Positions 35,610-64,000 of a stretch of 64,000 bases of DNA are shown here, in pieces. Made by a program: the position numbers and the translations under genes. The DNA is from a virus (Duplodnaviria; Heunggongvirae; Uroviricota; Caudoviricetes). The notes under the pieces were generated by a model. That model was not told the DNA's origin, made no database searches, and saw only the letters and a list, made by a program, of their open reading frames with translations. How positions within the stretch are numbered: the first letter of the stretch is position 1; each line of letters opens with the position of its first letter. Where the stretch lies: IMG/VR virus record IMGVR_UViG_3300001798_000005. The stretch is one strand, 5' to 3'.

Positions 35610-36017
35610 TTAAACCCCGAATGCATACCACCCGATATAAACGGTCCGCATGTACCAATCAGGATCCTCTCCCGGCTGCGGTGCGGGTTCACAGTACGCG
35701 ATATGGACAGACTGACCGGATGCGGTCAGGATCGTGCCTTTCGGGAATGCGGTCCTGATGTTTCCCATCATCGTCTCAGCTGCCTGGGATCCCGCATTGG
35801 GGGGATAGAAGAGATCAAGGATCATCACGCCATCGGCGCGATCCGGTATCCCGACCCCCACGCCCGCCGTGCGGACCCGTGCGGTCATGACAGTACAGCT
35901 CAGCCATGGCGTCCCCGGCGTGGGTCGGTAAACGACATTTTCATATCTGATTGCCGGAACACTTGAGACGGTTGCCAACTGAGTCTCCAGAGCGGTGCGG
36001 ACCTGTAGGATCGTCAT
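35610..36017 (-). CDS. tail terminator (gpU-like)
   Basis: 135 aa, position. Confidence 0.5.
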   Translation of the reverse strand: MTILQVRTALETQLATVSSVPAIRYENVVYRPTPGTPWLSCTVMTARVRTAGVGVGIPDRADGVMILDLFYPPNAGSQAAETMMGNIRTAFPKGTILTASGQSVHIAYCEPAPQPGEDPDWYMRTVYIGWYAFGV

Positions 36018-36457
36018 AACTTGTTCAAGACCTCTTGCGCGATCTGTTGGGCCTCTGCGAGCGTGACAGCCACCATGCCCGCAGGGGCCTGCTGGGAGTG
36101 ACCCTTTTCAAGGGCCTGGATGTATGAGGCATTGTTGGCCAGGATGATGACATCGCCCATCTTGGCTTGGCCGATTGTGACCGTCAGGGCCGCAAAAGGT
36201 GTCGAGACACTCCCCGCCCCCCCGGTTTTCCCCTTATAGGTTTCCCATTGGGGCTGGTTGGGATGCCCCCCAAGATTGCCCAGGCTGGCCCACCAGGAGG
36301 CTCGGGAAAATCCAGTCTTCACTGGGTTACGGGTAATGATCCGTAGGGCTATCTCCTGAGAGACAGTTTTTAGAAACGCATCTGCTTTTTTCTCAACCTT
36401 ATTGAAAAATTTCGTCAGGTCTGCTGTAAAGGTCTGGGTCATGACTTCACCACACAC
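36014..36457 (-). CDS. tail completion / head-tail joining protein (gpZ / HK97 gp10-like)
   Basis: Position and size. Confidence 0.4.
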   Translation of the reverse strand: MCGEVMTQTFTADLTKFFNKVEKKADAFLKTVSQEIALRIITRNPVKTGFSRASWWASLGNLGGHPNQPQWETYKGKTGGAGSVSTPFAALTVTIGQAKMGDVIILANNASYIQALEKGHSQQAPAGMVAVTLAEAQQIAQEVLNKL

Positions 36458-36786
36458 ACATAAGCGATCACGGTCGTCCCCTCGGTGAGGGTCTGGACAT
36501 CCTCGATCGAATAACTGACGCTGCTCTTGATGATCAGATCATTGATCGTCGGCGCAACCGACAAGCCCTGGCCGGATATGATTATTTTTTTCTGGCCCGC
36601 CTGGGCGAGGCCCTTCCCTTTAGCGTAATCTGAAAATTCAATCAACTTGGCCGTGACGGTATAGTCTGTATTTGTTGGGGTGCTGGGGCCGGTTCCGGCA
36701 GTATAGGTTCGATTGCCCAATTTTCTCAACGTCAAGCTCTCCCCCTTGAGGAGGAGCAATCTATAGACCGGATACGTCAGATCCAA
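36439..36786 (-). CDS. head-tail adaptor (gpFII-like)
   Basis: Position and size. Confidence 0.35.
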   Translation of the reverse strand: MDLTYPVYRLLLLKGESLTLRKLGNRTYTAGTGPSTPTNTDYTVTAKLIEFSDYAKGKGLAQAGQKKIIISGQGLSVAPTINDLIIKSSVSYSIEDVQTLTEGTTVIAYVCVVKS

Positions 36787-37445
36787 TAGGCCCCCCAGGG
36801 GTCACCATCAAAGAGCTGATGGGGTTTTGGGTCGCCGTGGAAATAAACGATCCGTGCGTCTGCAGTTGGGCCGTTCTGGTCCCGAATGTCAGCCTTGTAG
36901 GACAGAATCTGACCAGGGAATTCGTCCTGAAGGATGATGGTTTCCGAGATCGGAATATTGCCATCCAGCCAGATCATATCAGAGACGCAATTCATCATCT
37001 GAAAGCGGTTTTTGTTCACATCTGATTGAAATTTTTCGTAAATCTCTTGACCCTTCTCGACTGAAAAGCTCATCACCCCACTGGCCCGCCGGGGGAAGTA
37101 AGGATCCCGGATCATCGCAAAGTCAGGGCGAAATTCAGCAATGTGATCAATGTCGCCAGTGATAATGGTATCCAGGCCCATAAAGAGCCGATGCCCGCCT
37201 CCGTAGGACCCCCGGAGGGCTTCCAGGAGGCAGAACATATTTCTGAAATCATTTTCAAACCGAACGGGACGGATATCCTCCTTGAAGTCATAATCCTGAT
37301 CGACCAGACAGACAAACTCAAAATCATCACAAAAGCGATTAATCCCCCGGTAGAGCTTATCGGCCCAAGTGGCGTCAAAGATATGGCGGGAATGTTGCGG
37401 GACGTCTTGGCCCTGATATAAGGCGGTCACGATGGTAACTGACAT
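36777..37445 (-). CDS. GT-A fold (GT8-like) glycosyltransferase-like protein
   Basis: IVTALY N-terminus, DXD-like LVDQD/DGD, C-terminal IVYFHGDPKPHQ resembling the GT8 H..G..KPW motif. Confidence 0.4.
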   Translation of the reverse strand: MSVTIVTALYQGQDVPQHSRHIFDATWADKLYRGINRFCDDFEFVCLVDQDYDFKEDIRPVRFENDFRNMFCLLEALRGSYGGGHRLFMGLDTIITGDIDHIAEFRPDFAMIRDPYFPRRASGVMSFSVEKGQEIYEKFQSDVNKNRFQMMNCVSDMIWLDGNIPISETIILQDEFPGQILSYKADIRDQNGPTADARIVYFHGDPKPHQLFDGDPWGAYWI

Positions 37446-38065
37446 AATTCCTCCAGGGTGATTTTCTGAAAAGCTTCAACCCGACTCTCCGGGGAGGCGT
37501 TCATGACTATTATCCCAGCCCTTTCGAGAGGCTCTTTCGTCGCCATGAAGTCTTCAGCCCATCCCTTATAGAGTCTATCCTGCATGGGGGAATCCCAATG
37601 ATAGCCCCCGTGCCAGTGCGATTGCTCCCCGATCCCCATATCGATCCCGAGGAGGATAATCCTTGCCGCGCCTTTAGAGTATGTGATATTGAGCGCTCCA
37701 TGACCGGTATTCCGACCCGCGACATCAGGGGGTTCCGTCAGACCCTCGGCGCGGGATCGCCGGAGATAATGAGCACCTTCGACCTTTTCCCCATCACATC
37801 CATGCCCGGGGTCATTCGCGGGGCTAATGATCAGGAACCGATCGCCCGGAAAGGCAATCAATTCTTTCTTCATGTTGTTGATGAAATTATGGTCCATCGA
37901 AACAATGCCATCACACTTGGCGGCTGGCATGAGCCCCGAGGCGTTACAGCCAAGGCGATAACCTGGCGGCAATCGATCGAAGTCAAAGCCCCTCAGGGAG
38001 TCTCCGCCGCCGATGATAAAAACTGTTTGGCCTTCCCAGGACCTATCCAGAACCGAATAACTCAT
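37427..38065 (-). CDS. DUF115 (Maf/MptE-like) putative glycosyltransferase
   Basis: FIIGGGDSL...GCNASG...DGIVSMD pattern recalled from DUF115/motility-accessory-factor proteins; start at internal Met. Confidence 0.35.
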   Translation of the reverse strand: MSYSVLDRSWEGQTVFIIGGGDSLRGFDFDRLPPGYRLGCNASGLMPAAKCDGIVSMDHNFINNMKKELIAFPGDRFLIISPANDPGHGCDGEKVEGAHYLRRSRAEGLTEPPDVAGRNTGHGALNITYSKGAARIILLGIDMGIGEQSHWHGGYHWDSPMQDRLYKGWAEDFMATKEPLERAGIIVMNASPESRVEAFQKITLEELCQLPS

Positions 38066-38498
38066 CTGCCTGTTCTCCACTGGGCGGATTGTGGAATTTA
38101 TCTCGACTGAAGGCCGCCGCCGGTCGGTCTGTGTCTTCCCTGACGTTCTCGATTTCGGAAATCGACACCCCTCCGACGTATGGCGACCCAAGGCCACCAT
38201 AGAGAGAGTTTTGCGCCGCTTGGGTCGTCAGGATGCCAATCAGGCCCCTGTAGTGTTCATATTGCTGATTGGCCGATACCCTGACGGATTCGATCGCGGT
38301 ATCGCACAACCGAGAATATTTAGCTGCCAATGATTGAGCGCAAAATATCGCCGCTGTATACTTGTCAGAAGTGGCCGCAATGGCGAAATTGATCTCAGCG
38401 TCTTGGAGCTGTTGATCATTGGTATCAGTGTCACCGATCAGAAACCGAACCGCCGCCAACGTGGAGGCTGCTGGGTCTCCGGCGTAGGTCCAGGTCAT
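38043..38498 (-). CDS. head-tail connector (gp6-like)
   Basis: Size and position upstream of adaptor genes. Confidence 0.4.
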   Translation of the reverse strand: MTWTYAGDPAASTLAAVRFLIGDTDTNDQQLQDAEINFAIAATSDKYTAAIFCAQSLAAKYSRLCDTAIESVRVSANQQYEHYRGLIGILTTQAAQNSLYGGLGSPYVGGVSISEIENVREDTDRPAAAFSRDKFHNPPSGEQADELFGSG

Positions 38499-38500
38499 CG

Positions 38501-39040
38501 TTACAACTCGACGTAATGAATGTAAGCGTATCCGGCGATCGCGGTCGCGGCCCCGGAGGCCACAGAACCCGTGATGGCTTGAGTGGAGGTGAAGAGCTTA
38601 ATGGTCTTGCCATTGGAGCCCGCATTGGCGATGTTGGTGAAAATCCCTGAAGAGACTCCAGTGGAGGCGGCTACGTTGGCCCCATCGATGAGCGAATCAC
38701 TCAAGGTGGTCTCGTCAGTCGCCACTCCTACATCAACCGTACAGGCGGCAGAGGTCAGGGTAGTGATATTCAGGACCACCAGGTGGACATATCCGGCCAC
38801 GCCGGGCGTGAAGGCAAAAACACCGCCAGCGGTCCCGACTGCCGCCAAGGCGACTTTCTTAACCTTAATGGGTCGTTTGGTCCCCGTGCTGGGCATCGCT
38901 AAATCGGCAGCCGTAACGGTTCCGGCACTCGTGATCCCTTCGGTGATGGTCAAAAGGCTAGAAGATGACCGGGCAACGGTTTTGAGGCATTCCATTATTT
39001 TCTGGACCGCATCAGATCCGGGTACTCTGTAACCGGGCAT
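38501..39040 (-). CDS. hypothetical virion protein (Thr/Ala/Gly-rich)
   Basis: ORF between capsid and connector genes. Confidence 0.4.
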   Translation of the reverse strand: MPGYRVPGSDAVQKIMECLKTVARSSSSLLTITEGITSAGTVTAADLAMPSTGTKRPIKVKKVALAAVGTAGGVFAFTPGVAGYVHLVVLNITTLTSAACTVDVGVATDETTLSDSLIDGANVAASTGVSSGIFTNIANAGSNGKTIKLFTSTQAITGSVASGAATAIAGYAYIHYVEL

Positions 39041-39321
39041 TATTTGACCTCTTTCTTTTCAGCCGACTTTTTGACAGGTTTTTCAAGTTTAACTTCAGGA
39101 GCCCCGATCAGCTCTGGTTCTGGTTCAGAAACCAACGCCGGGATATCGGGGTGATCGATGAATCGGTGATCCCACAGTTGGGTCATCCGGCGGGTATTGA
39201 CCGCCAATTGTCTCCAGGGGAAATCTTGCCCGATCCCCATCGGGTGCCCGTTGGCCGTAAAGGCCTTGCGGACCACGAATGTTTTCTTTAAATCAAAATC
39301 TATTCTGGCGCGAGGGCGCAT
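39040..39321 (-). CDS. hypothetical protein (start at internal Met; exact coordinate plus or minus 1)
   Basis: Longer ORF overlaps capsid gene 3-prime end; ends in Lys-rich tail. Confidence 0.3.
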   Translation of the reverse strand: MRPRARIDFDLKKTFVVRKAFTANGHPMGIGQDFPWRQLAVNTRRMTQLWDHRFIDHPDIPALVSEPEPELIGAPEVKLEKPVKKSAEKKEVK

Positions 39322-39367
39322 AAGACCTCCAAGGGGGAGAAGCGGGGAACAGAGTTCCCCGCTTGCT

Positions 39368-40354
39368 TTAAGCCACGATACTGGTAAAGAAATATCCCAG
39401 GTTTGCAGAAATGAGTTTTTGATCAAAAGCCATTTCACCTTCAACGCGGTCAGAGGCTTCTTTCTCAATTCTGAATTTTTTAATCCGAAGCCCATTAGAA
39501 CCGGCGCCGAACATACCCTTCCAGGAGAAGGTATAACCACCACTGGGGGTCATCAGGCCCGGACGAGGGGCGCTGTAGACCAAGAGGGCAGTTTTGCCGG
39601 TGATGAAGGCATGACTGTTGGTCACGGTTTCAGCCGCCGAGTTGTAGATCGCCGAACCGACAAGGATTTCGTCAAGTTCAAGGATCTGGGCAACAGCTTC
39701 CTTGGAGACCATTGCGGGTCTTCCGGCGGTTTGGCCGTATTTGACCCGATCGATGATGTCGGGGTGATCAACCAATTTGTCCCAGACTTCTTGACCGAGC
39801 ACCAATTTATTAGGGCGGAATCCGGTGGATTTGTGAACCACAGTCGCTCCCGCCCGAACGTCACTCAAGGGATCGGAGTTAGTGTAGTCACTCCACTGGT
39901 AGAGTTGACCAGTCGTCGGGGAAGCGGCACCGGTTTTGTCAGTCGTCCAGACGGAAGTCGTCATGAAAGAAGAGACGAATTTGGCTTCCTTCCTGATCAG
40001 CAATTTGGTCGTGACAAACTCAGTAGCTTCCATGTCGAGGTTCAACGGCACATCAGCGTTAGCGCGGATCTGATCCGGCACGTCTTTGTGCCAAGCCCAG
40101 ACGTTGGCGAAATAGCTGGGGGTATTGTCGATCCGGTAATCACCTCCGGCAGATTCAGCCCCAGGGGCCCGTACACGAGCTTCATCCCGGTTGAAATCCC
40201 CACGGTCGTATGTGAAAAAACGATCGGATTGTTTGTCTACAGGGATATTAGGGAAGACCTTATCGGCGATAAAGGCATCCTGGTTTTGCAAAAACGCGAC
40301 ACTGATCATTGTCAGCGGGGCGTTTACGTGGACATCTGATGCGGTAGGGTTCAT
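39368..40354 (-). CDS. major capsid protein (lambda gpE-like)
   Basis: 328 aa, pattern and order (D-like gene immediately upstream). Confidence 0.6.
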   Translation of the reverse strand: MNPTASDVHVNAPLTMISVAFLQNQDAFIADKVFPNIPVDKQSDRFFTYDRGDFNRDEARVRAPGAESAGGDYRIDNTPSYFANVWAWHKDVPDQIRANADVPLNLDMEATEFVTTKLLIRKEAKFVSSFMTTSVWTTDKTGAASPTTGQLYQWSDYTNSDPLSDVRAGATVVHKSTGFRPNKLVLGQEVWDKLVDHPDIIDRVKYGQTAGRPAMVSKEAVAQILELDEILVGSAIYNSAAETVTNSHAFITGKTALLVYSAPRPGLMTPSGGYTFSWKGMFGAGSNGLRIKKFRIEKEASDRVEGEMAFDQKLISANLGYFFTSIVA

Positions 40355-40379
40355 TCCCTAAATCTCCTCTTACTTCTAA

Positions 40380-40760
40380 TTACGCGGTGGCGGATGCGGC
40401 TTTGGCGCGGGGGTGGAACAAGATGGCGATCACGTTACCGCTTGCGCCAGTCTCCAGAGCCTCACCGAGGATCACGTCATTGGTCGCACAAGCGACCGCT
40501 TGACCATTAGTGTCACTCGCGACGGGGTTACCTTTAGTGATCGTGCCCGCGCAGGAGACCTTGGTGATTCCGCCGACACAAACCGAGGCCGCCCGACCGG
40601 CAGCCGCAGGAGTGTTTTGCAAAACCCCAATAGCGAATAGGCCATCACCGGCGGGATCGACTTGACCGTCAGACGAGACGTCAACAAAGTAATATTGCTT
40701 GGCTGACAGATCTGCACCCGCTTCAAAGTCAACGATTTGCATATTTTGCGAAAAAGACAT
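40380..40760 (-). CDS. head decoration protein (gpD-like)
   Basis: 126 aa, Gly/Ala-rich beta protein immediately upstream of capsid gene. Confidence 0.55.
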   Translation of the reverse strand: MSFSQNMQIVDFEAGADLSAKQYYFVDVSSDGQVDPAGDGLFAIGVLQNTPAAAGRAASVCVGGITKVSCAGTITKGNPVASDTNGQAVACATNDVILGEALETGASGNVIAILFHPRAKAASATA

Positions 40761-40782
40761 TCTCTTACTCTCTCCTCAGCTC

Positions 40783-41559
40783 TTAAACGACAGGATTCAA
40801 TTTGTCGTAAAGTTTCACACCCTCATCTGAAAACAGCGCTTTCGTGTAAGCTTGCTCAAAAGTTAGGCTTGGGTTTTTATCAACAATTTCTTTCGCCATA
40901 GCGGTTAGGCGGTCCTGAGGGGCTTTTTTCTCAACAGAAGCCTTGCCGACTTCCTTAAAGGCAGAACCCAGGGACTCATTGGCGGATTTCAAAACCTGAA
41001 GGGCGTATTCTTTATTATCGCCATCGAGGCCAGCCAAGGCTTTCAACAGTTGAGCCTTTTGGACTTCATCCCCAGGGAGGTTGGGGATTTCGGCATTTGC
41101 CTGTTTGGCAAATGCATTCAATTCCAGGACTTCCTGTTGGGACTTCAGGGTTTTGGCCATTTCAAGATTTTGTTTCACAACAGCTTCAAGCTGTTTCTGA
41201 ATGGTTTCCGAAAGCCCCTCTTTGGCAACTTCAGCGGCCTTGGCCTCAGCGGCCTCCTTGTCGGCGATCGCTTTAGCGACTTCCTGGGCGGCATCGGCTT
41301 GAGATTTGGCGAGTTTGTCCTCAGCGGTTTTTTGATCCGCCTGGGCCTGCTCAAGAGCTTTTTGCATTTCTTCCAAGGTCATTTTAGGGACTCCCTCATT
41401 AAATTCTGCATCTGTTTTAATTTCAGATTCCTCGATCATAGCATCCGAATCACACGATCCGTTTTTTGTCAACAGCATGTTGGCAAATTGATTTGCTCCA
41501 ATGGTGACATTTGATACTTCAGTGAGGATCAGCTTGTGACATTTCTTTTTAGCTTTCAT
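40783..41559 (-). CDS. scaffolding protein
   Basis: Ala/Glu/Lys-rich coiled coil between protease and decoration genes. Confidence 0.55.
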   Translation of the reverse strand: MKAKKKCHKLILTEVSNVTIGANQFANMLLTKNGSCDSDAMIEESEIKTDAEFNEGVPKMTLEEMQKALEQAQADQKTAEDKLAKSQADAAQEVAKAIADKEAAEAKAAEVAKEGLSETIQKQLEAVVKQNLEMAKTLKSQQEVLELNAFAKQANAEIPNLPGDEVQKAQLLKALAGLDGDNKEYALQVLKSANESLGSAFKEVGKASVEKKAPQDRLTAMAKEIVDKNPSLTFEQAYTKALFSDEGVKLYDKLNPVV

Positions 41560-42562
41560 CTAATTTTTCCCATACGGCATTGCCGCCTATTGAAAACATT
41601 TTGAGGTTGCCATCCTTGATGGATTTCCAAACCTCTGAATCGTCAATCTTCACACCAATCAGCCAGCCGACCTTTTTTAGATCAATCCCTAAAACCTTCT
41701 GAAGCTCTTTAGTGAACATCATCGATTCAACAATGGTTCCGGTGGATTCACCGACGTGCATTGTTTTATTGGATCTGGAGTCCTGCATGAATTCCACAAC
41801 CGCATCAGCCAAAACGTCTTCCGGGATGATGTCACCATGTTGGTCGATGACTTCTTTCCCGTCTTTCTCCACCACAGAGGCCCACCCATAGACGAGCTGT
41901 TTGTCAGTAGCGCCGGTCTTGATGATCTCCCCCTCCATCTTGAGGGTATCGGCCCAGTCGGTCCGGTAGGGCATCACTTCTTCCGCCTCGAAGGAAAGCT
42001 CAAAAGTCGGGAGCTTTACTTTAGAAAGATCAAAATTAAGTCCCACATTATAAGAGACCGTCACATGTGGCTCCCGGTATTCCGCCCAATCGAAATCCAT
42101 CCCGAGGGCAATTGCCTTCGTGTTTTGTTCATCTACCTCATGGCAGGGGAAGCTCAAAACCAAGGCCTCACGGTTTGGCCCAACGAACTTCAGAGAGTAA
42201 GGGGGGTATTCGTCATTTAACCCAATCTGTACCCGGATAGGGTTAACGAGCGGTTCATACCCGGCAAAACCATCAGGGGACCTGATGACGGTACAGTGAA
42301 GGAGTTCAGCCGGGACCGGGTTGGGGATCTTATTCTCTTCCGCCCATCTGGAAAGATTCACCTCAGTGGTGGCGTCGGGTTTCATCCATGAATAGATGCC
42401 GGCCGATTCCTTCCAGGTCCGTTCAGGAGATAAAAAACCCTGCTTCTCGACGGCGATCCAAGCGGCAAAGGATCGGTGGATCTCCCCCTGGTTGGGGGCA
42501 GCCAGGTAAGCCTTGTAGAAGGCTTCACGGGCTGGCATGTTGGGGATTTGGTTAAAGTCCAT
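41549..42562 (-). CDS. fusion of N-terminal 2H phosphoesterase (LigT/CPDase-like) domain and C-terminal XkdF-like (S78) prohead protease domain
   Basis: Two H-x-T-x motifs (LHCTVI, PHVTVS) about 79 aa apart; C-terminus LVYGWASVVEKDG...HGDIIPED...HVGESTG resembles XkdF-type proteins (from memory). Confidence 0.45.
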   Translation of the reverse strand: MDFNQIPNMPAREAFYKAYLAAPNQGEIHRSFAAWIAVEKQGFLSPERTWKESAGIYSWMKPDATTEVNLSRWAEENKIPNPVPAELLHCTVIRSPDGFAGYEPLVNPIRVQIGLNDEYPPYSLKFVGPNREALVLSFPCHEVDEQNTKAIALGMDFDWAEYREPHVTVSYNVGLNFDLSKVKLPTFELSFEAEEVMPYRTDWADTLKMEGEIIKTGATDKQLVYGWASVVEKDGKEVIDQHGDIIPEDVLADAVVEFMQDSRSNKTMHVGESTGTIVESMMFTKELQKVLGIDLKKVGWLIGVKIDDSEVWKSIKDGNLKMFSIGGNAVWEKLDES

Positions 42563-43569
42563 CAGTCACTCAAATAATCAATTTTGTAAAATACCGTACA
42601 GCGGCATTGCACCGTCAGGGCCGCAGGGGCACGGGGATCGCCCGGATATTGGATCAGATATCCCCCAGGGGCCTTGAAGGGTTCCCGGAGCCCCACCCCG
42701 TCGGGGTTCAGAGCCGGAATCCCCCCATGGGCATGCGCGGGTCTGGTTTTCCCATCTTTAGTATAAATCCACAAACGGCGGATCCGCTTTTCCTCAACCT
42801 GGCCCTTCTCTGCCATATCTTCCCAGAGGGCCTGGCCGGACATGCTGAGGGATCGGATCGATTCCGTGCGGGCGATGACTTCAGATCTGTACTTCAGATA
42901 CCGGTCCCGATACCGGGCCGTCATTCGGTCAATCTGTTCACCCTTCAGGGCCTTATCTTTTAAATTCAGAATCGTCCGATCAAACCGTTTATCCCGAAGC
43001 GCTCTGTTAAGCGCTTCGGATGGCTTGTTGATCAATGCCTGCCGGTAGTTCGATACTGCCCGATCCTGTGATGCCGTCAGGCCAATGTGATTTTTTATCT
43101 CCCTGGCGGTCTCGATGGGGTTGATCCCACCCTGGAGGGAGCGGGATACAATCTGCTCAATCGTGGTTCGGGTTTCATCCGTCAGGCCACGGATCAGGGA
43201 CCTCTTATACTGATCCAGCACCCCGGTCAGTTTTGGGTTTGCCTGATCGAAATAAACATGGGTGTCGACCCGAACGCCCTGCCCGAATGGATCCCGCGCT
43301 TGCGGGAGCGCCGGAACTTCTGCCGCGATAGCCTTCCCGGAAGTAACAAAGCTTTCACTTATCTGCTCCCCAAAGGGCTGAAAGGCGGCTGAAATGTTGG
43401 TTTCACTGATCTCCCCCAGTAGGAGATCCACTCGGCCCCGGCTGAGGAGATCCGTTATCTCAGTTTCCGGGATGACGGCTTGAAGGCGATCGAGGGAAAG
43501 CAAAAATGAGGCCGCCAGTGCTTTCTCATTTGCCGATTGAACGGTCTGGAGGTTCTGGCTTTGGTCCAT
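42562..43569 (-). CDS. phage Mu F-like / SPP1 gp7-like minor head protein
   Basis: ARTESIRS motif, C-terminal CRCT; directly downstream of portal. Confidence 0.6.
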   Translation of the reverse strand: MDQSQNLQTVQSANEKALAASFLLSLDRLQAVIPETEITDLLSRGRVDLLLGEISETNISAAFQPFGEQISESFVTSGKAIAAEVPALPQARDPFGQGVRVDTHVYFDQANPKLTGVLDQYKRSLIRGLTDETRTTIEQIVSRSLQGGINPIETAREIKNHIGLTASQDRAVSNYRQALINKPSEALNRALRDKRFDRTILNLKDKALKGEQIDRMTARYRDRYLKYRSEVIARTESIRSLSMSGQALWEDMAEKGQVEEKRIRRLWIYTKDGKTRPAHAHGGIPALNPDGVGLREPFKAPGGYLIQYPGDPRAPAALTVQCRCTVFYKIDYLSD

Positions 43570-44959
43570 TTTGTTCCCCTTGTTGTAGCGCTGGAGGTGT
43601 CATCTGGTCCCGATAGGTCATGATGTCTTCCGGTTGAATCTCCTCGGGGAGATCCGCCGCCTGGCGGAGAACCTTTTCAGTCTCGATGTCACCGCCAAAG
43701 ACCATCCCGGCGGAAGCGAGCTTAGAGACGTAATCACCGAGTTCAACCAAATCTTGAGGGGCAATCTGTCCCGGGGTGAAGATCGGCAAAAAGATCGGAT
43801 CAAACCCATTGATCCTCCACAACTTCGGCAGGAGATCGCGGTTAATGGTGTCGGCAATCCCCTTGACCATGCCCTCAATGGCCTTAATGAAAAGCTGAGT
43901 CTTTGATTTCGAGAGCGCAAAGGACCCCGCGTCAGTTGAGCCAAGCATGATAAAGTCAGCTAAAAAGGTTGTCGCGATCGCGCGATTGTACCGGAGGATA
44001 GTGTCATTAGTGTTAATCGCCCGTGAGCCGCCAGAGGTGATAAGGCTGACGTCAACCATTGGGGTGCTGCTCAAACTCCCATCTTCATTGGACCACAGAT
44101 CGGAGGGGATCACGATCCCGCCTTGCTCGTTAAACTTCATGTCCCGAGCCATCTTTTTATAAAGCGCCAAGGCGGCGGAATTGATCGGATTGGTGATGAT
44201 CTCCGACGGGATGCGGATAACCGGCAAGCCAGCCAGATCCCGCTCAATCCCGATTGCCTCGGTCCATTCAATATTCTTTTTAAAGTACCAAGGCCGGTAG
44301 CAGTTTCTCAGAAGGGATCGGCCTTCTGGGTTGTCCTTACGGGACGTGGTGCGGAACAGGATAGCCTTCTCCATGGGGATATAGATATTAGGGGCGCCAT
44401 TGGGGTCTTGTTGATAAAATCCCAAGATATCCCCATTGGGTGCCCGTTCCCATCGGTCGATACTTTCTTGACCCCGAGGGGCGAGTTTGTGGAGGCCGAT
44501 CCGGCCATCTGAATAATTGCTCGCCGCCATCCCGGCAGCAGGGCTTAACCCGTCCCGGCGCTTATAGACGGTTTCAAAGACCGAAAATCCAAAAACATTC
44601 TGAGTCAAGACCTCTGCCAAGAATTCACTCAAAGGTTGGTCCATATCGGATAAACACTCATCGGTGAACTCCGCATATTCGCCCGACGTGTCGGCCCCGC
44701 TGGGGCTAGACTTCCAATCGATGGCCTGAATGAGCCGCTCAATTCCGTTCAGGACGGCGCCGATGACGTCATCGTTATCAGCCATCTCACGATAAGTCTT
44801 TCGGCCACGGTCGCCCTGAAGTTCTGGGACAAATTCCTCCCAGATATACCCATTGGCGATCCTCAGACCCGTAACGCCCATTTGGGCCGTCGGGTCAATC
44901 GGAGGGGTTGCCTCGACCGGTTGGGCTGGCTTTGGTTTAAAGAAAGACATAATATCCAT
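43526..44959 (-). CDS. portal protein
   Basis: 477 aa between TerL and MuF-like gene. Confidence 0.65.
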   Translation of the reverse strand: MDIMSFFKPKPAQPVEATPPIDPTAQMGVTGLRIANGYIWEEFVPELQGDRGRKTYREMADNDDVIGAVLNGIERLIQAIDWKSSPSGADTSGEYAEFTDECLSDMDQPLSEFLAEVLTQNVFGFSVFETVYKRRDGLSPAAGMAASNYSDGRIGLHKLAPRGQESIDRWERAPNGDILGFYQQDPNGAPNIYIPMEKAILFRTTSRKDNPEGRSLLRNCYRPWYFKKNIEWTEAIGIERDLAGLPVIRIPSEIITNPINSAALALYKKMARDMKFNEQGGIVIPSDLWSNEDGSLSSTPMVDVSLITSGGSRAINTNDTILRYNRAIATTFLADFIMLGSTDAGSFALSKSKTQLFIKAIEGMVKGIADTINRDLLPKLWRINGFDPIFLPIFTPGQIAPQDLVELGDYVSKLASAGMVFGGDIETEKVLRQAADLPEEIQPEDIMTYRDQMTPPALQQGEQNGPKPEPPDRSIGK

Positions 44960-44968
44960 GAATCTATT

Positions 44969-46474
44969 CTATCTCGCGTATGGGTTGTAATGGGTCAGAC
45001 CACTCTGGAGATCATTGTCCCGAAGCGCCCTAGGGGCCTGCTGTTCATTCCCGGTCGTGATAGGGCCACAGGTGATCGCTTTTGGCTGACGGGACCATTT
45101 CATGATACGGCTCAAATATTGCGACATCGCGTCAACGTCATCATCATGAGTCACGTTGGGGAAATTGCACCAGTTCGCCACCGTGGCCTTTACCCATGGC
45201 TTGTTCCTGGGGACAAAGACCTTTCCGGCCTCAAAGTACGTTGAGACAAAATTGACCCGTTCGGTCTTGCTCATCCCCATGTTCTTGCCGGGCATCATGG
45301 CGATCACCGGGATGGCGGAATCGGCCCGCATGTCCTGAATGAGCTGTTGCCCTGAGGCCTTATCCTCAATGAGGGCCTCCAGGGCGGGGTATTGTCTCCA
45401 TTGGTCCCTGAAGGTCTTCTTAAGCTCCGGGTATGGCATCTTACGCTTAACCTGCTCAACCAGATAATGCCCATTGTCGCACTCGGCCCAGAGCTGACCG
45501 ACTGAATAGTCATTCTCCTGTTTTTCCTTGATCGCGGTGTCCCAGGACCACCGGAAAGCCTTCACGGGCGGAAGCTCATCCCAGTATTGGATCCATTCCG
45601 GTAAGAGGATACCCTTGCCGGGGCTGACATTCCAGTTTCCCCCCAGGAGTTGCTCTCGGTCGATTCTCGGCAGGGCCATCAGGTTAGCGAGATAGCCGGG
45701 ATCTTTTTCCATCAGGATCTTATTGTCATAAATGGAGGCCGCGATAAAGGTGAAGGACTTGGGAAGCGTTGGAAGTTCTGGGGTTGAGGGATACTTTTCC
45801 AAAAGTTCTTCAGCAGTGTCGCCCCAGAGGAATTCGTCTTCTCTGACGATGAACCACCGGATTTTACCCGACCGCTCTGGAATCGGCAGGCCATCTTCGC
45901 CGATCCACCAATCAATCAACTCCCTGACAAATGAATCCGAATCAGGGTTGCAGGTGGCCCGGATGTAAGGTTTGACCCCACAGGTGGAGCGATTCCGAGA
46001 AAACATATAGAAGAATTGCCCCCGGGTGAAGTGGGTCAACTCATCGAAACCCATCATGGGCAGCTCAGACCCCTGATAGGACAGCTTGTCCTTCTCGTGC
46101 TCCATATGGGCGAAGGTCACGCTTGCCCCGCTGGGGAAAGTCCACTGAAGCTTGGAGATCAAGGGCTTCCCGCCCAGTTGGGGAAACATGGCTTGGCTCT
46201 GATCCCAGAGTGAACCTTGTTTTTTGATCTGTGGAGAGGTCCTGCGGAATATGACAGCGCCGAAGTTGGGGTTATCGGTGTTGCGAAATGACTCAGCGAG
46301 AAGGCTCCAGGATTTTCCACCCCCCGCCGCCCCGCCATAAATGGCTACGTCAGCGGATGTTGACAAGAATAACTCCTGCGGGCCTGGCTGAGGGGACATC
46401 TCTATAGTCAAAATAGCCTCACTTGTTGAGCCTCTGAGATAAGGTTTTTCCAGCTTTAGGCTTCTGTTGTTCAA
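44969..46474 (-). CDS. terminase large subunit
   Basis: Walker A YGGAAGGGKS, Walker B GFDELTH, C-terminal nuclease-like region. Confidence 0.8.
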   Translation of the reverse strand: MNNRSLKLEKPYLRGSTSEAILTIEMSPQPGPQELFLSTSADVAIYGGAAGGGKSWSLLAESFRNTDNPNFGAVIFRRTSPQIKKQGSLWDQSQAMFPQLGGKPLISKLQWTFPSGASVTFAHMEHEKDKLSYQGSELPMMGFDELTHFTRGQFFYMFSRNRSTCGVKPYIRATCNPDSDSFVRELIDWWIGEDGLPIPERSGKIRWFIVREDEFLWGDTAEELLEKYPSTPELPTLPKSFTFIAASIYDNKILMEKDPGYLANLMALPRIDREQLLGGNWNVSPGKGILLPEWIQYWDELPPVKAFRWSWDTAIKEKQENDYSVGQLWAECDNGHYLVEQVKRKMPYPELKKTFRDQWRQYPALEALIEDKASGQQLIQDMRADSAIPVIAMMPGKNMGMSKTERVNFVSTYFEAGKVFVPRNKPWVKATVANWCNFPNVTHDDDVDAMSQYLSRIMKWSRQPKAITCGPITTGNEQQAPRALRDNDLQSGLTHYNPYAR

Positions 46475-46582
46475 AAACGCTCGATAGTTCCAAGAATTCC
46501 TTCAACCCCGGCAAGGTCTTAGCGGGCTCTTCCAGAGCCTTACAGAATTTTTCCCACGCCTCTGCGTCTAACCTTGCCTCGC

Positions 46583-46789
46583 TCACAATACCCTCAGATG
46601 GCTTTCTTTTTTTTTGTAAAAATCACAATTCCTGACCCCGAAGGCATCGTCAATAAAGACCACCTGGGTCACTAGGGCCTCCAGGAGGGGGCAGAGAGGC
46701 TCCTCCTCTGTTCTTTTTCCGCCATTCGTGCAGGTCCCGCACTGGTCATCTTTTTCGATACAGATTTGGCCATTATCGCCCAAAAACAT
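46583..46789 (-). CDS. small Cys-rich protein (68 aa)
   Basis: CIEKDDQCGTC...C pattern. Confidence 0.3.
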   Translation of the reverse strand: MFLGDNGQICIEKDDQCGTCTNGGKRTEEEPLCPLLEALVTQVVFIDDAFGVRNCDFYKKKESHLRVL

Positions 46790-48354
46790 CAGCCCCTCCA
46801 GCGGTTACCAGAAATGAAAAATATAGTCGTCGCCCCCGAGGGGTACATCCCGACATGAGCTTTGGCCCAAGTACTATAGCCCATGTTATACCCGAGATTG
46901 TATTGACTTGACGTCCCGGCCTGGATGGCTCGGTTCTTCTTTCCTGGTCCGTGGCCGTGGCCCCCTGAGGCGGCCCTGCCGGTCTTGGCCATCCCGGCCA
47001 GACTCCCCCGGGAACCATTGACGCCCTTGTCGAAGTGTTGGTTAAAATCCACCCCAAGGATTTCTACTTTTTCAGATCTGTCATGAAAGATGACACTTTC
47101 GGGATTTCGGATTCGTGATTCCATATAAAGCTTCAGCGGATGGGGGATAGAGATCTCCATTCCCCGGCAGGTGATCCCCTGGAGGACTTGAAGATTTAGC
47201 TCGTGATAGATCAGGGCATTCTCGGGATCCTGCCTGATATCGGCTTCTTTGAGCCACCGCTGAAGGGCGTCATTGTGGTTTGAGGGGACGATGTGGTAAA
47301 TCGTATCGGGTCGATTCAGGCAATCAGAAAAGAAGTCCACCAGCCGGGTAAGCTCATCATCGACTGAATTTAGCCCCCAGTGGTGCTTGGCGAAGTTCAG
47401 ATGAACATCCCCCCGGTGGTGGTGATTGGCTGAGAAGAAGTCCAAGACGTCATGATGGAATTCATGCTCGGGGTTCAGGACCTCAGTGATGGATCCCGCC
47501 CCCCAGGTGGCGGCCTTCACGCCTGGATCGATAAAGTCCAAATGGGTATCCCCGCAACTTAACGCCTTGAGGCGATGCTGCCCAGTAGTGCCATCAGGAG
47601 AATAGTAGCTATCAAGATCGTAGAATCCCCCATGGGGGTCGGCCTCAATATTCCTTAACCAGAAGTCTTCTCCATCTCGCTCCACCACCACGGCCCCACA
47701 GGCATGGCGGGCTGTGGCCTTCATGCCTGCGACTGATTCACTGTAGCGGGATTCCGTCACGGCGCCGGTGGTCATGAAGATCCGGGGGTTGTCCCCGACA
47801 GGGCGGGCGGCGGTTTTAGTCTCGATCGTGGGGTGGCCGATGACAAAGCTCCTCTGGGGGTCCAGGATATCCAGACCCGCCAGGGGGCTGGCGGCGGTGG
47901 CCTGGATGAAGGAATTGCCCATGATAGTCAACAAACCATTCACCTCGAATGAGTCAAGATGGATGTCATCCCGGAGTTCTCTGGCCCACCAGGTGGCTCC
48001 ATCCTGCTTGGCCAAGTAGGCGGAAACGTTCTTATACCGGATGGGGATCACGAGGAGCTTTGCCCCCCGGTGCTGGCAGTATTGGCGCAAGCTGGCCAGA
48101 AATGGCTCATTAATGGCGGTATTGTTAATCGCGCAAGTGACGATGAAGATTGATTTTTCATTATTGACAATGGGGGTCTGGACGCCCGGGGAGCTGAGTC
48201 GGGTTTTCTTCTTTATATTTAATTCTGAAATCCAATCGAAAAAAGTAGACTTTGCGACGCCGAGGAGCTTGGCGGCCTTTCTGACAGACCCGGCTCTCTC
48301 TAGAGCCTCGATGATTTCGCCAGTAGGAGGTTTAGCCGTTTTTGGACTTGACAT
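46789..48354 (-). CDS. N-terminal HTH + calcineurin-like metallophosphoesterase domain protein (521 aa)
   Basis: HTH AAKLLGVAKSTFFDWI; motifs GDTHLD and VPSNHND (GNH[DE]-like); sits between TerS and TerL. Confidence 0.4.
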   Translation of the reverse strand: MSSPKTAKPPTGEIIEALERAGSVRKAAKLLGVAKSTFFDWISELNIKKKTRLSSPGVQTPIVNNEKSIFIVTCAINNTAINEPFLASLRQYCQHRGAKLLVIPIRYKNVSAYLAKQDGATWWARELRDDIHLDSFEVNGLLTIMGNSFIQATAASPLAGLDILDPQRSFVIGHPTIETKTAARPVGDNPRIFMTTGAVTESRYSESVAGMKATARHACGAVVVERDGEDFWLRNIEADPHGGFYDLDSYYSPDGTTGQHRLKALSCGDTHLDFIDPGVKAATWGAGSITEVLNPEHEFHHDVLDFFSANHHHRGDVHLNFAKHHWGLNSVDDELTRLVDFFSDCLNRPDTIYHIVPSNHNDALQRWLKEADIRQDPENALIYHELNLQVLQGITCRGMEISIPHPLKLYMESRIRNPESVIFHDRSEKVEILGVDFNQHFDKGVNGSRGSLAGMAKTGRAASGGHGHGPGKKNRAIQAGTSSQYNLGYNMGYSTWAKAHVGMYPSGATTIFFISGNRWRG

Positions 48355-48713
48355 TTAAAATCCTCATGCTACCCATGGCACAATAGTATCATTTTAAAAA
48401 CAAACGATCAAAGGATTGACAAATATAGAATGTGATGTAAGATATATTTAACTGAACGGTTGGTGGGCTGATTAATACCAGTAAGCCAATCAGTAAATCC
48501 TGCTCTTGAGTCGAAAAGGGATCGCCCCGTGCCTTCAGGGGGTATCGTTTCTGAAGGCGCCAGTCTTGGCTGATTGACTCTCGCGCCGGTTTACGCCGGA
48601 ATCTGATGAAAGAAGCCGAAGTCCCTTGGCTAGGGGGACTTGATACCCTAGCCACCTTTTACTTTGGCGTCTGGACCTTGTAACTCCCGACAAGAGTAAA
48701 TGCCGGCTTTTCT

Positions 48714-49004
48714 TTATTCTTCATACCTTGTCCCCCGGCAGGACCGACAGACTATCCAGATCTCCATCCCGGCGGGCCAGTGCTGAAGCTCCCAGGCCGA
48801 CAGGAGATCAGCCGGGACACACAAGACCTCAAGGATCTTGCCCCGCCCACCGCAGTCCTGACACCGTCTGGCCTCAACGTTTTTTCGCATCCTTCTTGGC
48901 CTTCTGGTTTGCAACTTTTGCCGCCTTCTTGGCTTTATTGATCGCCTCAGTCCCGTTCGCCTTATAGGCCTTACACTTCTCCTTGTTCCGGCCCTTTTTC
49001 GCAT
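48714..49004 (-). CDS. Arg-rich basic protein with C-terminal CxxC...CxxC zinc ribbon
   Basis: First 45 residues more than 40 percent Arg/Lys; CQDCGG...CRSCRG; alternative Lys-rich frame 48874..49014 also open. Confidence 0.35.
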   Translation of the reverse strand: MRKRAGTRRSVRPIRRTGLRRSIKPRRRQKLQTRRPRRMRKNVEARRCQDCGGRGKILEVLCVPADLLSAWELQHWPAGMEIWIVCRSCRGTRYEE

Positions 49005-49387
49005 TGCCCGCCATTGTTGGATCTCCCATTGTCGGGCAGATACAGGGTTACCCTGGTGGCCCCGTCTCCGCCGGTTTCTGTCACTTCATGTTTTTCAGAC
49101 CAGTTAGCCCGGTTCTTCATGTTGAGTTCCCAAACCTTGGTGTTGAAATTTTTGATCTTGCCAAACATGGCATTCATCCCGGCGTTCTCCATCATTAGAA
49201 GATACTCTGCTTCCCCGAACTCTTTTGCCTCGGCGAATTCGGGGACAATTTTCAACCAATTGTGCATTGTCGCCATCTTGACGCGAATCACAGCGGCGAA
49301 GGATGAGAAAGATTTACCTTTCTTCATATGCTCAATGAGCTGTTCCGCATATTCGCGCCTGTAAGTATATGGCTTCGTGGGTGGCAT
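48971..49387 (-). CDS. terminase small subunit
   Basis: HTH-like N-terminus and C-terminal ...TLYLPDNGR motif recalled from TerS proteins. Confidence 0.5.
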   Translation of the reverse strand: MPPTKPYTYRREYAEQLIEHMKKGKSFSSFAAVIRVKMATMHNWLKIVPEFAEAKEFGEAEYLLMMENAGMNAMFGKIKNFNTKVWELNMKNRANWSEKHEVTETGGDGATRVTLYLPDNGRSNNGGQCEKGPEQGEV

Positions 49388-49457
49388 TTTGCCTCCTAGA
49401 GAAACGCGGGCCTAAACCCGCGAGGAACAACAGTGGAAAGGAAAGGACACAATTCTA

Positions 49458-49769
49458 TTATAAATCCTCGCTGACACTCTGCCAGCCTTCATCCCAAGCC
49501 CGATGCTCACTGCTAGCCTCCGGGTAGGGGTTCCAAACCCTTTGGGCGTTATGTTCGCTTCGGCTGACATAACCTTCCCGGTGGGCTTTGGCGATCGGGT
49601 CGGGGCCGGTGGCCTTGATCTCAGGAGTCTCTTCACCCATGAGCATTTTTTCAAACCCCACCATGGAAACCTGAAAGTCGCCATCATCTCTCATCTGGTC
49701 CAGGAGGGTGATGATGATGTCTGTGGCGTACATGGTTTTGGGCATTTTTTCAAGATCGGGTTTCATCAT
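49458..49769 (-). CDS. hypothetical protein
   Basis: ORF only. Confidence 0.4.
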   Translation of the reverse strand: MMKPDLEKMPKTMYATDIIITLLDQMRDDGDFQVSMVGFEKMLMGEETPEIKATGPDPIAKAHREGYVSRSEHNAQRVWNPYPEASSEHRAWDEGWQSVSEDL

Positions 49770-49969
49770 CCATCCTTTCGGGGCCGACTCATTATAGAGT
49801 CAGCTAAAATACTAACATCCTTTTGCATCTCGACCAAGTGCGTCGATAGCTTAATCGCCTGCTTGGTGTGGGGGCCGATCTGTTCCTCAAGCTCCCTTAT
49901 TCGGATCAATAGAGCCCCCAGGCGAGACGTCAAAGCCACTAACCAAATAATGACAATCCACTCAAACAC
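49766..49969 (-). CDS. small membrane protein
   Basis: TM FEWIVIIWLVALTS. Confidence 0.35.
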   Translation of the reverse strand: MFEWIVIIWLVALTSRLGALLIRIRELEEQIGPHTKQAIKLSTHLVEMQKDVSILADSIMSRPRKDG

Positions 49970-50786
49970 TCAAGGCCTCCTTCCGGCCCAGGAGGTTATA
50001 ACATTCTTCCCGCTCGGTTCCTTGGGGCCACGGAGACAGCTTCCTGAAAGATTGGCCTTTCTTGATATTGTAAACCGTTGATGCCGATATCCCGGTTAAT
50101 TTTGCAATTGTCTTATGATCGGAAGTAACTTCCAGAAGCGTCTTGACATTTCGGGCGAGATTCTCATCCAGGCGTTTTTCGATAAAACTGCGTTCCCGAT
50201 GGGGAGCATTAGTGCATTTTTGCGGTTTCATCCCAACCCTGTAGAGTGTTCCGCCATACCGGCGATCCTCTTTAATGTAATTGACAAAATCAATGCGACA
50301 TTGCCCTATTGGGGGAATGGTGTAAATCTTGGCCCCATTCTGGCTAACTGAAGTCACCCCAGGGCAGATCTTCCAAAAGAATTTACTGAAAGGAGTCTGA
50401 CCGATTGGTGAAGTGATCCCAGTTTGGGACTTGTGGGCATAATCAGCATACAGGTTTTGAAAGGATACTTTAGAGCCGAAAATAGGATCCAAGTCATTGT
50501 TCAATAATGATTCCCACCATGATTTTACGCCAGAATAAGTTAAGGTGATGTCTGATAATGCCCCAGATGTGCAATTTATTTTCATAAGAGGCGCTGTAAT
50601 CTTCCTATTCTCAAGGGACTCCTCAAGGCCTTGAAAGATTTGACTCTTGAGGGCTTCCTGAATCCGATCTTTTTCGCTGCTCATGCGATCATCGAGATAC
50701 GATGAATATTTTTCAAATTTTTCATTTATTTTTGCGTCAATCTTTTTGTCAATTGCTTCCCAGATTTTATCCCATGGAAAGATCAT
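49962..50786 (-). CDS. hypothetical protein with C-terminal HTH
   Basis: HKTIAKLTGISASTVYNIKKGQ. Confidence 0.45.
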   Translation of the reverse strand: MIFPWDKIWEAIDKKIDAKINEKFEKYSSYLDDRMSSEKDRIQEALKSQIFQGLEESLENRKITAPLMKINCTSGALSDITLTYSGVKSWWESLLNNDLDPIFGSKVSFQNLYADYAHKSQTGITSPIGQTPFSKFFWKICPGVTSVSQNGAKIYTIPPIGQCRIDFVNYIKEDRRYGGTLYRVGMKPQKCTNAPHRERSFIEKRLDENLARNVKTLLEVTSDHKTIAKLTGISASTVYNIKKGQSFRKLSPWPQGTEREECYNLLGRKEALSV

Positions 50787-54086: not shown

Positions 54087-54560
54087 ATGCTGACAAATGA
54101 GGAATTGCAGGCGATAGCCGAGCTTGAGGAAAGAGCCACTAAAGGGCCTTGGTTTATAAAAACCGACTCCTGTGATTGTGGAGACGGCTATGGATGCTCT
54201 CACAGGGCGTGGGGCTATGAGCTTTATCGTGTAGATCCAGAACCAGATCCCGAATGGGGAGACATGGAAACAAAAGCCCGCCAATGCCTTTCCGGTCTAT
54301 ATCAGCGTCCGGTTGCTGAAGATATTATAATAAGCGTTGATGATGGTGAATTCTGTGCCACCGCCCGCACAAACATCCCCGCGCTCCTGGCCCACATCAC
54401 CGAGCAGGCGGAGACCATTGGGAAGCTGAGGGACGTAATCAGAAAATCTACCACCTATCGATACCAGACGTGTGATGGCACTTGGTGTACAGGGTGCTGG
54501 AAAGACTTGGCACGCGATACCCTCGCCGAAACAGCCGCGTTTGAGACCAACAATGTTTAA
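54087..54560 (+). CDS. hypothetical protein, paralog B with Cys-rich insert
   Basis: See paralog A. Confidence 0.5.
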   Translation: MLTNEELQAIAELEERATKGPWFIKTDSCDCGDGYGCSHRAWGYELYRVDPEPDPEWGDMETKARQCLSGLYQRPVAEDIIISVDDGEFCATARTNIPALLAHITEQAETIGKLRDVIRKSTTYRYQTCDGTWCTGCWKDLARDTLAETAAFETNNV

Positions 54561-60108: not shown

Positions 60109-60184
60109 CTTGGTTTGAGGCTTTTCTCTGGACCCTTGCTGGGATCTGGATTGCAGAAAATTTAACAAAAAGAAAGGAAACAAA

Positions 60185-60466: not shown

Positions 60467-60546
60467 GAATATGATAATACTCATAGAACTCCCTTATGGA
60501 TTCTGGTATTATAATTGTATACCAGAAAGGGAAAGAGGAACGCCCA

Positions 60547-60852: not shown

Positions 60853-60952
60853 AAAAATAAATATACCGATCGGTAGATTAATTTCTACCATAATAGAAGT
60901 ATAAACTATGCCATAAGTATATACTATTGAGTTAATATGTAAAGGGGAAGTC

Positions 60953-63987: not shown

Positions 63988-64000
63988 ATATGGCAATCTC

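Follow-up and report, generated by a model that had tools for sequence, protein, structure and literature searches.

What would a phage gain by joining an enzyme predicted to destroy immune signals to the protease of its own prohead? This question is raised by a gene of IMG/VR virus record IMGVR_UViG_3300001798_000005 (Duplodnaviria; Heunggongvirae; Uroviricota; Caudoviricetes), of which a stretch of 64,000 nucleotides, here called the window, was analysed. An earlier account drawn from the nucleotide letters (the sequence-only reading) had placed a fusion gene at 41549-42562, which is correct, without stating that it lies on the minus strand. We propose, with a probability of about 0.6, that its product would combine a prohead protease with an Acb1-type activity degrading the signals of CBASS (cyclic oligonucleotide-based antiphage signalling), expressed from the head operon. 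The gene and its parts are as follows.

41549-42562, minus strand: whole fusion gene, an open reading frame (ORF) with an ATG start encoding 337 amino acids, with Pfam matches to Acb1 and Peptidase_S78_2.
42413-42562, minus strand: residues 1-50, two helices predicted by the AlphaFold model.
41948-42400, minus strand: residues 55-205, predicted Acb1-family 2H phosphodiesterase domain (PF23474, PDB entry 7T26, Foldseek).
42284-42301, minus strand: residues 88-93, first predicted catalytic motif LHCTVI (H89, T91), aligned with H44/T46 of T4 and FBB1 Acb1.
42053-42070, minus strand: residues 165-170, second predicted catalytic motif PHVTVS (H166, T168), aligned with H113/T115 in T4 numbering.
41954-41956, minus strand: W203, the counterpart of T4 Acb1 lid W147 in the alignment with Acb1 sequences.
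41903-41947, minus strand: residues 206-220, TLKMEGEIIKTGATD, a short low-confidence linker (predicted local distance difference test, pLDDT, below 50 at residues 203-220).
41573-41926, minus strand: residues 213-330, XkdF/Peptidase_S78_2 domain (PF14550).
41843-41845, 41756-41758 and 41591-41593, minus strand: D240, H269 and S324, the invariant residues of the XkdF domain.

The 337-residue protein consists, in this order, of a short helical N terminus, an Acb1-type 2H domain and an XkdF-type protease domain. Pfam gives exactly two matches at E<=1 on it, Acb1 and Peptidase_S78_2, and the PHROGs calls are equivalent to these two domains. The plus strand at 41549-42562 contains no ORF, its translation being closed by many stop codons. 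The paired HxT motifs that had been noticed from the letters, LHCTVI and PHVTVS, are present at residues 88-93 and 165-170 with their histidines (H89 and H166) 77 residues apart. A hydrophobic-flanked HxT pair with a spacing of 60-100 residues occurs in only 1 of the 77 stop-free stretches of at least 150 residues in the window. Together with the Pfam and PDB scores and the conservation of the motifs in homologues, this shows that the pair in the fusion gene is far beyond a chance pattern.

The Pfam Acb1 profile PF23474 matches residues 55-205 over positions 2-143 of 144 with 67.3 bits (cutoff 27, E 1.6e-18). In a phmmer search of the PDB with the single sequence, only Acb1 of Erwinia phage FBB1 was matched (7T26, E 3.4e-9), and with a profile built from 13 fusion homologues the same entry is found at E 2.4e-22, with the Acb1 entries of Burkholderia phage BCSR5 added. 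This is further supported by an AlphaFold model from the 13-homologue alignment (pLDDT about 80-94 over the Acb1 domain), for which Foldseek ranks 7T26 (E 6.1e-10) and 7T27 (E 1.3e-9) at the top with target template modelling scores of 0.69/0.76, followed by BCSR5 Acb1 (9Q2Y) and then by LigT at about 1e-3. Profile scores and predicted fold identify the N-terminal domain as a 2H phosphoesterase, specifically one of the Acb1 family. The sequence-only reading had called it a LigT/CPDase-type 2H enzyme; the 2H assignment stands and the LigT type does not, the closest family by both Pfam and Foldseek being Acb1. Acb1 degrades CBASS signals and has been characterised in its stand-alone form (Hobbs et al. 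2022, PMC9117128).

These comparisons bear directly on a proposal of RNA end-healing, in which the 2H domain would open 2',3'-cyclic phosphates on nuclease-damaged tRNA and an RNA ligase would seal the ends, as a Pnkp/Rnl-like defence against anticodon nucleases. Such chemistry is carried out by 2H enzymes such as LigT, which open 2',3'-cyclic phosphate ends. The genome also encodes the RNA ligase that had been recognised at 17662-18408 (PF09414, E 1.3e-17), as well as a Metallophos phosphatase (56156-56884) and a gene with the PHROG label 'phosphoesterase' (54472-55131). However, the domain scores as Acb1, with no match to the LigT_PEase or 2_5_RNA_ligase2 Pfam models at E<=1 on the fusion protein; LigT structures rank well below Acb1 in Foldseek, and the domain has counterparts of the nucleobase-stacking Y12 and F107 and of the lid tryptophan of Acb1. 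The RNA ligase lies about 23 kb away in another module, whereas the neighbours of the fusion gene are head genes, and neither it nor any phosphoesterase candidate is near the fusion gene. Three lambda-type phosphoesterases had been claimed to complete such a system. One of these is borne out at 56156-56884 (Pfam Metallophos/NinI-like), 54472-55131 carries the PHROG label only, and 46789-48354 falls away as a 'DNA transfer protein'. According to Iyer et al. 2017 (PMC5512222) the polyvalent and head-fused versions of this 2H clade are never seen with RNA ligases. As RNA repair also offers no reason for a fusion to a capsid protease, we regard it as very unlikely.

To relate individual residues to function, the domain was aligned with FBB1 and T4-like Acb1, and residue roles were taken from Hobbs et al. 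2022 (PMC9117128). In this alignment the catalytic tetrad H44/T46/H113/T115 of T4 Acb1 corresponds to H89/T91/H166/T168 of the fusion protein, and the stacking residues Y12, F107 and lid W147 to Y57, W159 and W203; the lid and the stacking role of its tryptophan are described in the same study. Chemistry and pocket of the domain thus look Acb1-like as judged by alignment. The same residues are relevant to another possibility, that the domain is an injected ribonuclease cutting host RNA early in infection, by analogy with Usb1/Mpn1. This alternative is given in PMC5512222, where it derives from parallel fusions of PBECR ribonucleases to MuF and portal proteins. Later work showed the family to be Acb1, whose dinucleotide pocket is closed (PMC9117128), and three of the four pocket aromatics, the lid tryptophan among them, have counterparts in the fusion protein; an injected ribonuclease is highly improbable.

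Conservation of the HxT motifs in homologues, which the 2H assignment of the sequence-only reading implied, is indeed found. Of 13 close fusion homologues, 12 retain both motifs. H89 and T91 occur in all 46 Acb1-XkdF cluster representatives (clustered at 50% identity or below) and in 105/105 sequences of a comparison set comprising 104 non-XkdF representatives and the query (P0001) as reference. H166 is likewise present in 46/46 fused representatives, each of which has Thr or Ser at position 168. The lid tryptophan W203 is kept less strictly, in 26/46 of the fused as compared to 92/105 of the non-XkdF set. We consider Acb1-like catalysis by the domain very probable.

The second half of the protein is equally well recognised. 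PF14550, Peptidase_S78_2 or 'putative phage serine protease XkdF', matches residues 213-330 over profile positions 4-123 of 126 with 66.1 bits (cutoff 24, E 3.8e-18), and among the PHROGs two families of head maturation proteases are hit, at 5e-14 and 3.7e-9. The model improved (pLDDT 82.5) when it was built from a deeper alignment of 39 XkdF domains; it has an assemblin-like fold, and the fold search linked the XkdF domain to gp21; a search of the PDB with the XkdF-domain sequence profile gave no match, so that the gp21 link comes from the fold search only. All 88 homologues examined share D240, H269 and S324, and the 46 fused representatives keep them almost without exception; S280 is not conserved. 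The order of motifs is colinear with that of HK97 gp4 (GWASV/GYASV, DxxGDII/DSDGDII, MH/NH65, FSIGG/MS114VGF); the pairwise statistics with HK97 gp4 are weak and reliance is placed on motif order. H65 and S114 are the catalytic residues of HK97 gp4. Profile match and modelled fold identify the C-terminal third as a prohead protease domain of the XkdF type, in agreement with the sequence-only reading.

The possibility that a free protease is also made from an internal start was considered and rejected, as no Shine-Dalgarno sequence or start signal is seen before M210. At the other end of the protein, residues 1-50 contain helices at 11-20 and 27-40 in the AlphaFold model. Residues 5-50 score 14.8 bits with a local hidden Markov model built from the ChaB-bearing XkdF relatives P0010, P0020, P0022, P0023 and P0063, and the Pfam ChaB model (PF06150) has no match in residues 1-50 of the fusion protein. 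This suggests a weakly ChaB-like helical hairpin. Pfam ChaB (PF06150) itself is found at the N terminus of several XkdF relatives.

The gene lies in a head-assembly operon, as the sequence-only reading had stated, with the following neighbours.

44969-46474, minus strand: large terminase subunit (PF03237, E 6.1e-23; PF17289, E 6.5e-12).
43526-44959, minus strand: portal protein of Mu type (PF06074, E 2.3e-32).
42562-43569, minus strand: MuF-like head morphogenesis gene immediately upstream of the fusion gene (PF04233, E 1.1e-9).
40783-41559, minus strand: coiled-coil scaffold-like gene of 258 amino acids downstream of the fusion gene (phrog_24785, E 1.1e-13; no Pfam match on this gene).
41464-41535, minus strand: scaffold residues 9-32, KLILTEVSNVTIGANQFANMLLTK, proposed counterpart of the HK97 gp4 segment LREISVCTFPANEQAGIAAMK that follows the catalytic serine.
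40380-40760, minus strand: cement or decoration protein (PF09956, E 8.1e-7).
39368-40354, minus strand: major capsid protein, lambda gpE-like (PF03864, E 1.1e-7).

The fusion gene sits at the position expected for a prohead protease, between portal/MuF and scaffold/major capsid. The stop codon of MuF and the start of the fusion gene overlap as TGATG, and the end of the fusion gene shares 11 nt with the start of the scaffold gene. The order of terminase, portal, MuF, fusion, scaffold, cement and major capsid genes is kept in a relative at 46% identity, and the scaffold-like gene occupies the same downstream position in loci L001, L002, L008 and L009 and in phage Sansa.

The junction between protease and scaffold deserves attention. 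The XkdF ORF ends 13 residues past the predicted catalytic S324. In HK97 gp4 the next conserved segment, LREISVCTFPANEQAGIAAMK, comes 27 residues after S114 (E141). The scaffold gene of the window opens with LILTEVSNVTIGANQFANMLLTK, and when the two ORFs are read end to end its E14 also stands 27 residues after S324. The opening segment has the consensus 'EVSxVxxGANxxAxxLLxK', and it also stands at the beginning of the downstream gene in L002, L008, L009, Sansa (L017) and Proteus phage PM-CJR, the motif-bearing genes being L002:8915-9772, L008:4560-5231, L009:6340-7176, L017:6153-6929 and L007:2892-3851. In Bacillus phage BMBtp14 the motif is at the N terminus of the protease-scaffold protein gp58, in the same chain, and in phage T1 it comes after the protease domain. 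None of the 88 XkdF homologues carries the motif in the same chain as the protease.

Joining of protease and scaffold by programmed frameshifting was examined and rejected. There is no slippery site at the protease-scaffold junction, and the geometry of the junction varies across loci (11-nt overlap, 4-nt overlap or gaps of 1-4 nt); accordingly, we read protease and scaffold as two polypeptides. HK97 gp4 carries the segment after the serine in its own chain, whereas the XkdF-type domain is short and the segment is found on a separate scaffold gene. From these motif comparisons XkdF-type proteases look like split enzymes whose last conserved segment resides on the scaffold, and the N-terminal scaffold segment might serve as a tether or as a strand completing the protease fold. 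Scaffold docking, if true, would explain how the fusion protein enters procapsids, and completion and tethering of a split protease there would bring the Acb1 domain into the head for the next cell. The observation suggests a recruitment route for XkdF proteases and fused cargo to procapsids that is relevant to the engineering of heads with cargo enzymes.

Taken together, the product of the fusion gene would be a head-assembly protein with two functions, expressed late and with its translation coupled to that of MuF and scaffold. Its C-terminal protease, similar to HK97 gp4 and T4 gp21, would use H269 and S324, probably with D240; it might dock on the N-terminal 'EVSxVxxGAN' segment of the scaffold, enter the procapsid and digest the scaffold. 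H89/T91 and H166/T168 would enable metal-independent cutting of the 3'-5' bonds in cyclic di- and trinucleotide signals, candidate substrates being the CBASS messengers 3'3'-cyclic GMP-AMP (cGAMP) or cyclic AAA (cAAA). By analogy with T4 and FBB1 Acb1 this would proceed through attack of the 2'-OH and a 2',3'-cyclic phosphate intermediate to a linear product. Through the fusion, protease and signal-degrading enzyme would be produced simultaneously and in a 1:1 ratio, and the enzyme could be carried into the capsid interior. There the folded domain, about 17 kDa in size, would be expected to remain until it leaves with the DNA in the next infection. We give encapsidation of the Acb1 domain an even chance. 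Homology argues for the anti-CBASS role, and the immune-signal-degrading function that the sequence-only reading had linked to the head genes appears to be the best reading, in agreement with the published inference for 2H-MuF and 2H-portal proteins.

The architecture recurs widely. An identical protein, flanked by the same genes, is found in metagenome contigs, and metagenome assemblies also contain homologues of 84% and 68% identity. An exhaustive search with an Acb1-domain profile among 1.84 billion cluster representatives gave 4131 hits at E<=1e-3, of which 2702 reach E<=1e-10. The best 150 of the 4131 Acb1-like representatives were sorted by architecture:

46 of the best 150: Acb1 N-terminal to an XkdF domain.
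About 10-11 of the best 150: Acb1 N-terminal to a DUF2213 domain.
2 of the best 150: Acb1 with Peptidase_S78.
16 of the best 150: Acb1 on portals belonging to three Pfam families; in the seven checked it is at the C terminus, which is the capsid-interior end.
6 of the best 150: Acb1 with MuF.
Several of the best 150: polyvalent-protein domains (ART, LPD37/38, Zeta toxin, NUDIX).
About 15 of the best 150: stand-alone Acb1 of about 150-165 amino acids.

Prohead protease is the commonest partner of Acb1 in this sample; the count is biased towards relatives of the query, the profile having been built from XkdF-fused Acb1 domains. Examples of Acb1-DUF2213 fusions include P0166, P0137, P0209 and P0182. 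DUF2213 is the head maturation protease of phage T1 (L005:12620-13732, phage T1 ST50). Treating XkdF and the T1 protease as one family was rejected, since hhalign with the XkdF profile finds no detectable similarity, and DUF2213 is counted as a separate family. Acb1 thus appears to be joined N-terminally to at least two and probably three protease families, namely XkdF, T1-type DUF2213 and HK97-type S78. By these domain assignments the fusion in the window is one of a large uncharacterised class.

Two XkdF proteins, P0046 and P0082, carry a different 2H family (2_5_RNA_ligase2/LigT_PEase) at the N terminus, indicating that the XkdF protease has acquired 2H enzymes on more than one occasion. 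MuF, ChaB and PF23719 also occur N-terminal to XkdF, as do, in Rhizobium and Roseobacter phages, stretches with a DNA methyltransferase annotation. In a tblastn search of the phage collection no record covers at least 80% of the fusion protein, and an intact full-length fusion is not found in any record of it; the domains match separately, as T4-like Acb1 and as XkdF, the latter including 'DNA methyltransferase/prohead protease' fusions. UniProt automatic annotation names such fusions by one domain or the other. A scan of genome contigs detected only XkdF-only relatives in metagenome-assembled genomes and gave no clue to the host.

The bias of the best-150 sample is one of several points that weigh against our interpretation. 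The position of T4 W74 aligns to K125, with F126 adjacent, and is not aromatic across the fused family, and the T4 Acb1 residue E141, which contacts the adenine N6, corresponds to M197. The E141 position is variable (E, A, K, G) in fused and unfused relatives. The lid residue W203 is internal, not C-terminal as in Acb1, the protease domain starting about 10 residues further on. Moreover, the relative P0027 keeps the domain with both histidines lost, and gp024 of the cultured Caulobacter phage Sansa (L017:4959-6149), which has the same two-domain architecture and the same operon position, keeps the domain position with LKVNV replacing LHxTV.

Because E141 is replaced by Met197 and the W74 position lacks a clear aromatic, the substrate range or base preference may differ from that of T4 Acb1. 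The same two differences would be expected if the chemistry were directed at another messenger, for instance the cyclic oligoadenylates of type III CRISPR systems or 2'-5'-linked oligonucleotides, rather than at CBASS. Targets of this kind, 2'-5' oligoadenylate or CRISPR-linked, were proposed for head-fused 2H domains by Iyer et al. (PMC5512222 and PMC9503650). On the other hand, T4 and FBB1 Acb1 are unable to accept rings of more than three bases (PMC9117128), and the closest relatives of the domain in both sequence and structure are proven anti-CBASS enzymes. A messenger outside CBASS is unlikely on this evidence.

The persistence of the domain in P0027 and Sansa gp024 in the absence of the HxT motifs means that a non-catalytic role may accompany its activity or be all that remains of it. 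In Sansa gp024, where Pfam detects neither domain, the degenerate motifs suggest a relic or a domain reused non-catalytically, and this protein was rejected as a cultured model for the activity on account of its degenerate 2H motifs and missing Pfam matches. Taken further, the 2H domain could be mainly structural throughout, an assembly or spacer domain of the procapsid in which catalysis is incidental or decaying. These degenerate copies persist in the same position, and XkdF domains bear many unrelated N-terminal extensions. The retention of H89, T91, H166 and T/S168 in every fused representative is, however, hard to explain without selection for catalysis, and a mainly structural role seems quite unlikely compared with the signal-degrading enzyme we favour.

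Why the carrier should be a protease can be considered in the light of recent reports on the activation of CBASS. T4 gp21 cleaves an activation loop in cGAS/DncV-like nucleotidyltransferases (CD-NTases), which is sufficient for CBASS activation, and about 24% of CBASS operons have CD-NTases with such loops (2026 preprint, 10.64898/2026.03.04.709575). Mutations escaping Type I CBASS map to the T1-like scaffolding prohead protease (2023 preprint, 10.1101/2023.05.21.541620). Protease fusions gain interest from the finding of the 2026 preprint that prohead proteases trigger CBASS. In the best-150 sample Acb1 appears fused to both protease lineages implicated as triggers, the gp21/HK97-like XkdF and the T1-type. 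Such fusions amount to a natural experiment with trigger and countermeasure in one polypeptide, and they bear on how phages cope with a prohead protease activity reported as a direct trigger of CBASS.

Each trigger molecule might in this way carry its own signal-destroying enzyme, a 'trigger-linked antidote', with the split protease perhaps completed and active only in the procapsid; we put this forward as a tentative and rather doubtful idea. Trigger coupling as the selective reason for the fusion is likewise possible but improbable. Packaging and trigger linkage both fit the data, are not mutually exclusive and are offered here as proposals. Of the two, packaging is the more economical, since the fusions to portal, MuF and polyvalent proteins fall under it as well, and trigger linkage accounts for the excess of protease partners and the constant N-terminal placement. 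The choice bears on when and where phages deploy signal-degrading enzymes, injected early or made late.

The rest of the window offers some observations outside the head genes. Bases 1-3985 repeat exactly at 60016-64000, and the G+C content is 51%; the exact 3985-base terminal repeat indicates that the genome, of 60,015 bp, is circular or circularly permuted. A megablast search with 36000-50000 against 50,697 phage records gave no match, and the closest portal shows 40% identity. Given the lack of a nucleotide match for this region, the virus is a new, siphovirus-like phage. Beside the terminase gene, 46789-48354 on the minus strand encodes a 521-residue protein with a match to phrog_1745, 'DNA transfer protein' (E 7.5e-124), and a weak N-terminal helix-turn-helix. 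A cluster at 16517-19051, also on the minus strand, comprises a pyrophosphatase-like gene (16517-17125, PHROG), the RNA ligase (17662-18408) and a gene (18401-19051) for a protein that matches 'DNA methyltransferase' PHROGs in their C-terminal part. It may be a separate module for nucleic-acid repair or modification, unrelated to the head gene.

Comparison with known systems places the fusion protein between several of them. It resembles T4 gp57B and FBB1 Acb1 (7T26/7T27) in the 2H fold, the HxT motifs, the counterparts of Y12/F107/W147, domain length and phage origin. The characterised Acb1 is a stand-alone protein of about 150 residues encoded beside a deoxynucleoside monophosphate kinase and gp57A, whereas here the domain is internal to a 337-residue head-assembly protein. 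The stand-alone form of Acb1, the founding anti-CBASS enzyme, is the only one studied and is a minority in the biased best-150 sample, in which most copies are on capsid-interior proteins. With an effector and a capsid-interior protein of a portal-terminase phage in one chain, the protein has the make-up of a head-packaged effector. The concept is that of T4 IPI*/Alt and P1 DarA/Hdf, head-loaded anti-defence proteins ejected with the DNA; in our case packaging is predicted. Targeting of these known proteins relies on a cleavable capsid-targeting sequence or on dedicated assembly partners, and not on being joined to the protease. Alt is described in PMC5512222, and PMC12810830 is a further source for the concept.

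Fusions of 2H domains to head proteins have been described before. PMC5512222 reports 2H domains both within polyvalent proteins and as fusions to MuF or portal, and proposes that they act as ribonucleases or degrade the nucleotides of nucleotide-activated defence systems. In Iyer et al. 2022 (PMC9503650) such fusions are taken to suggest head packaging and injection against second messenger oligonucleotide or dinucleotide synthetase (SMODS)/CBASS, cyclic-mononucleotide and CRISPR signalling. The protein studied here shares with them the same 2H clade on a capsid-interior protein, and the portal, MuF and polyvalent forms were recovered in our search. The carriers named in the accessible text of these papers are MuF and portal, while here the carrier is the prohead protease. 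A structural precedent is the portal gp3 of cyanophage Pam3 (8HDS chain A), where an Acb1-like domain at residues 449-619 (LHVTIAYS and SHISLS, profile E 3.8e-16) is on the portal C terminus rather than on a protease; the Pam3 portal structure paper makes no mention of this domain. Hobbs et al. 2022 classed homologues as prophage-borne when a structural or packaging protein was encoded no more than three genes away (PMC9117128).

No description of a fusion between Acb1 and a prohead protease turned up in our literature search. Both Acb1 and 2H effectors fused to head proteins are already known, and the protease fusion, common in metagenomes yet unstudied, is the form for which no description was found. 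As compared to T4 gp21 (PDB 5JBL), HK97 gp4 (Peptidase_S78) and PBSX XkdF, the fusion protein adds an N-terminal enzyme domain to the protease.

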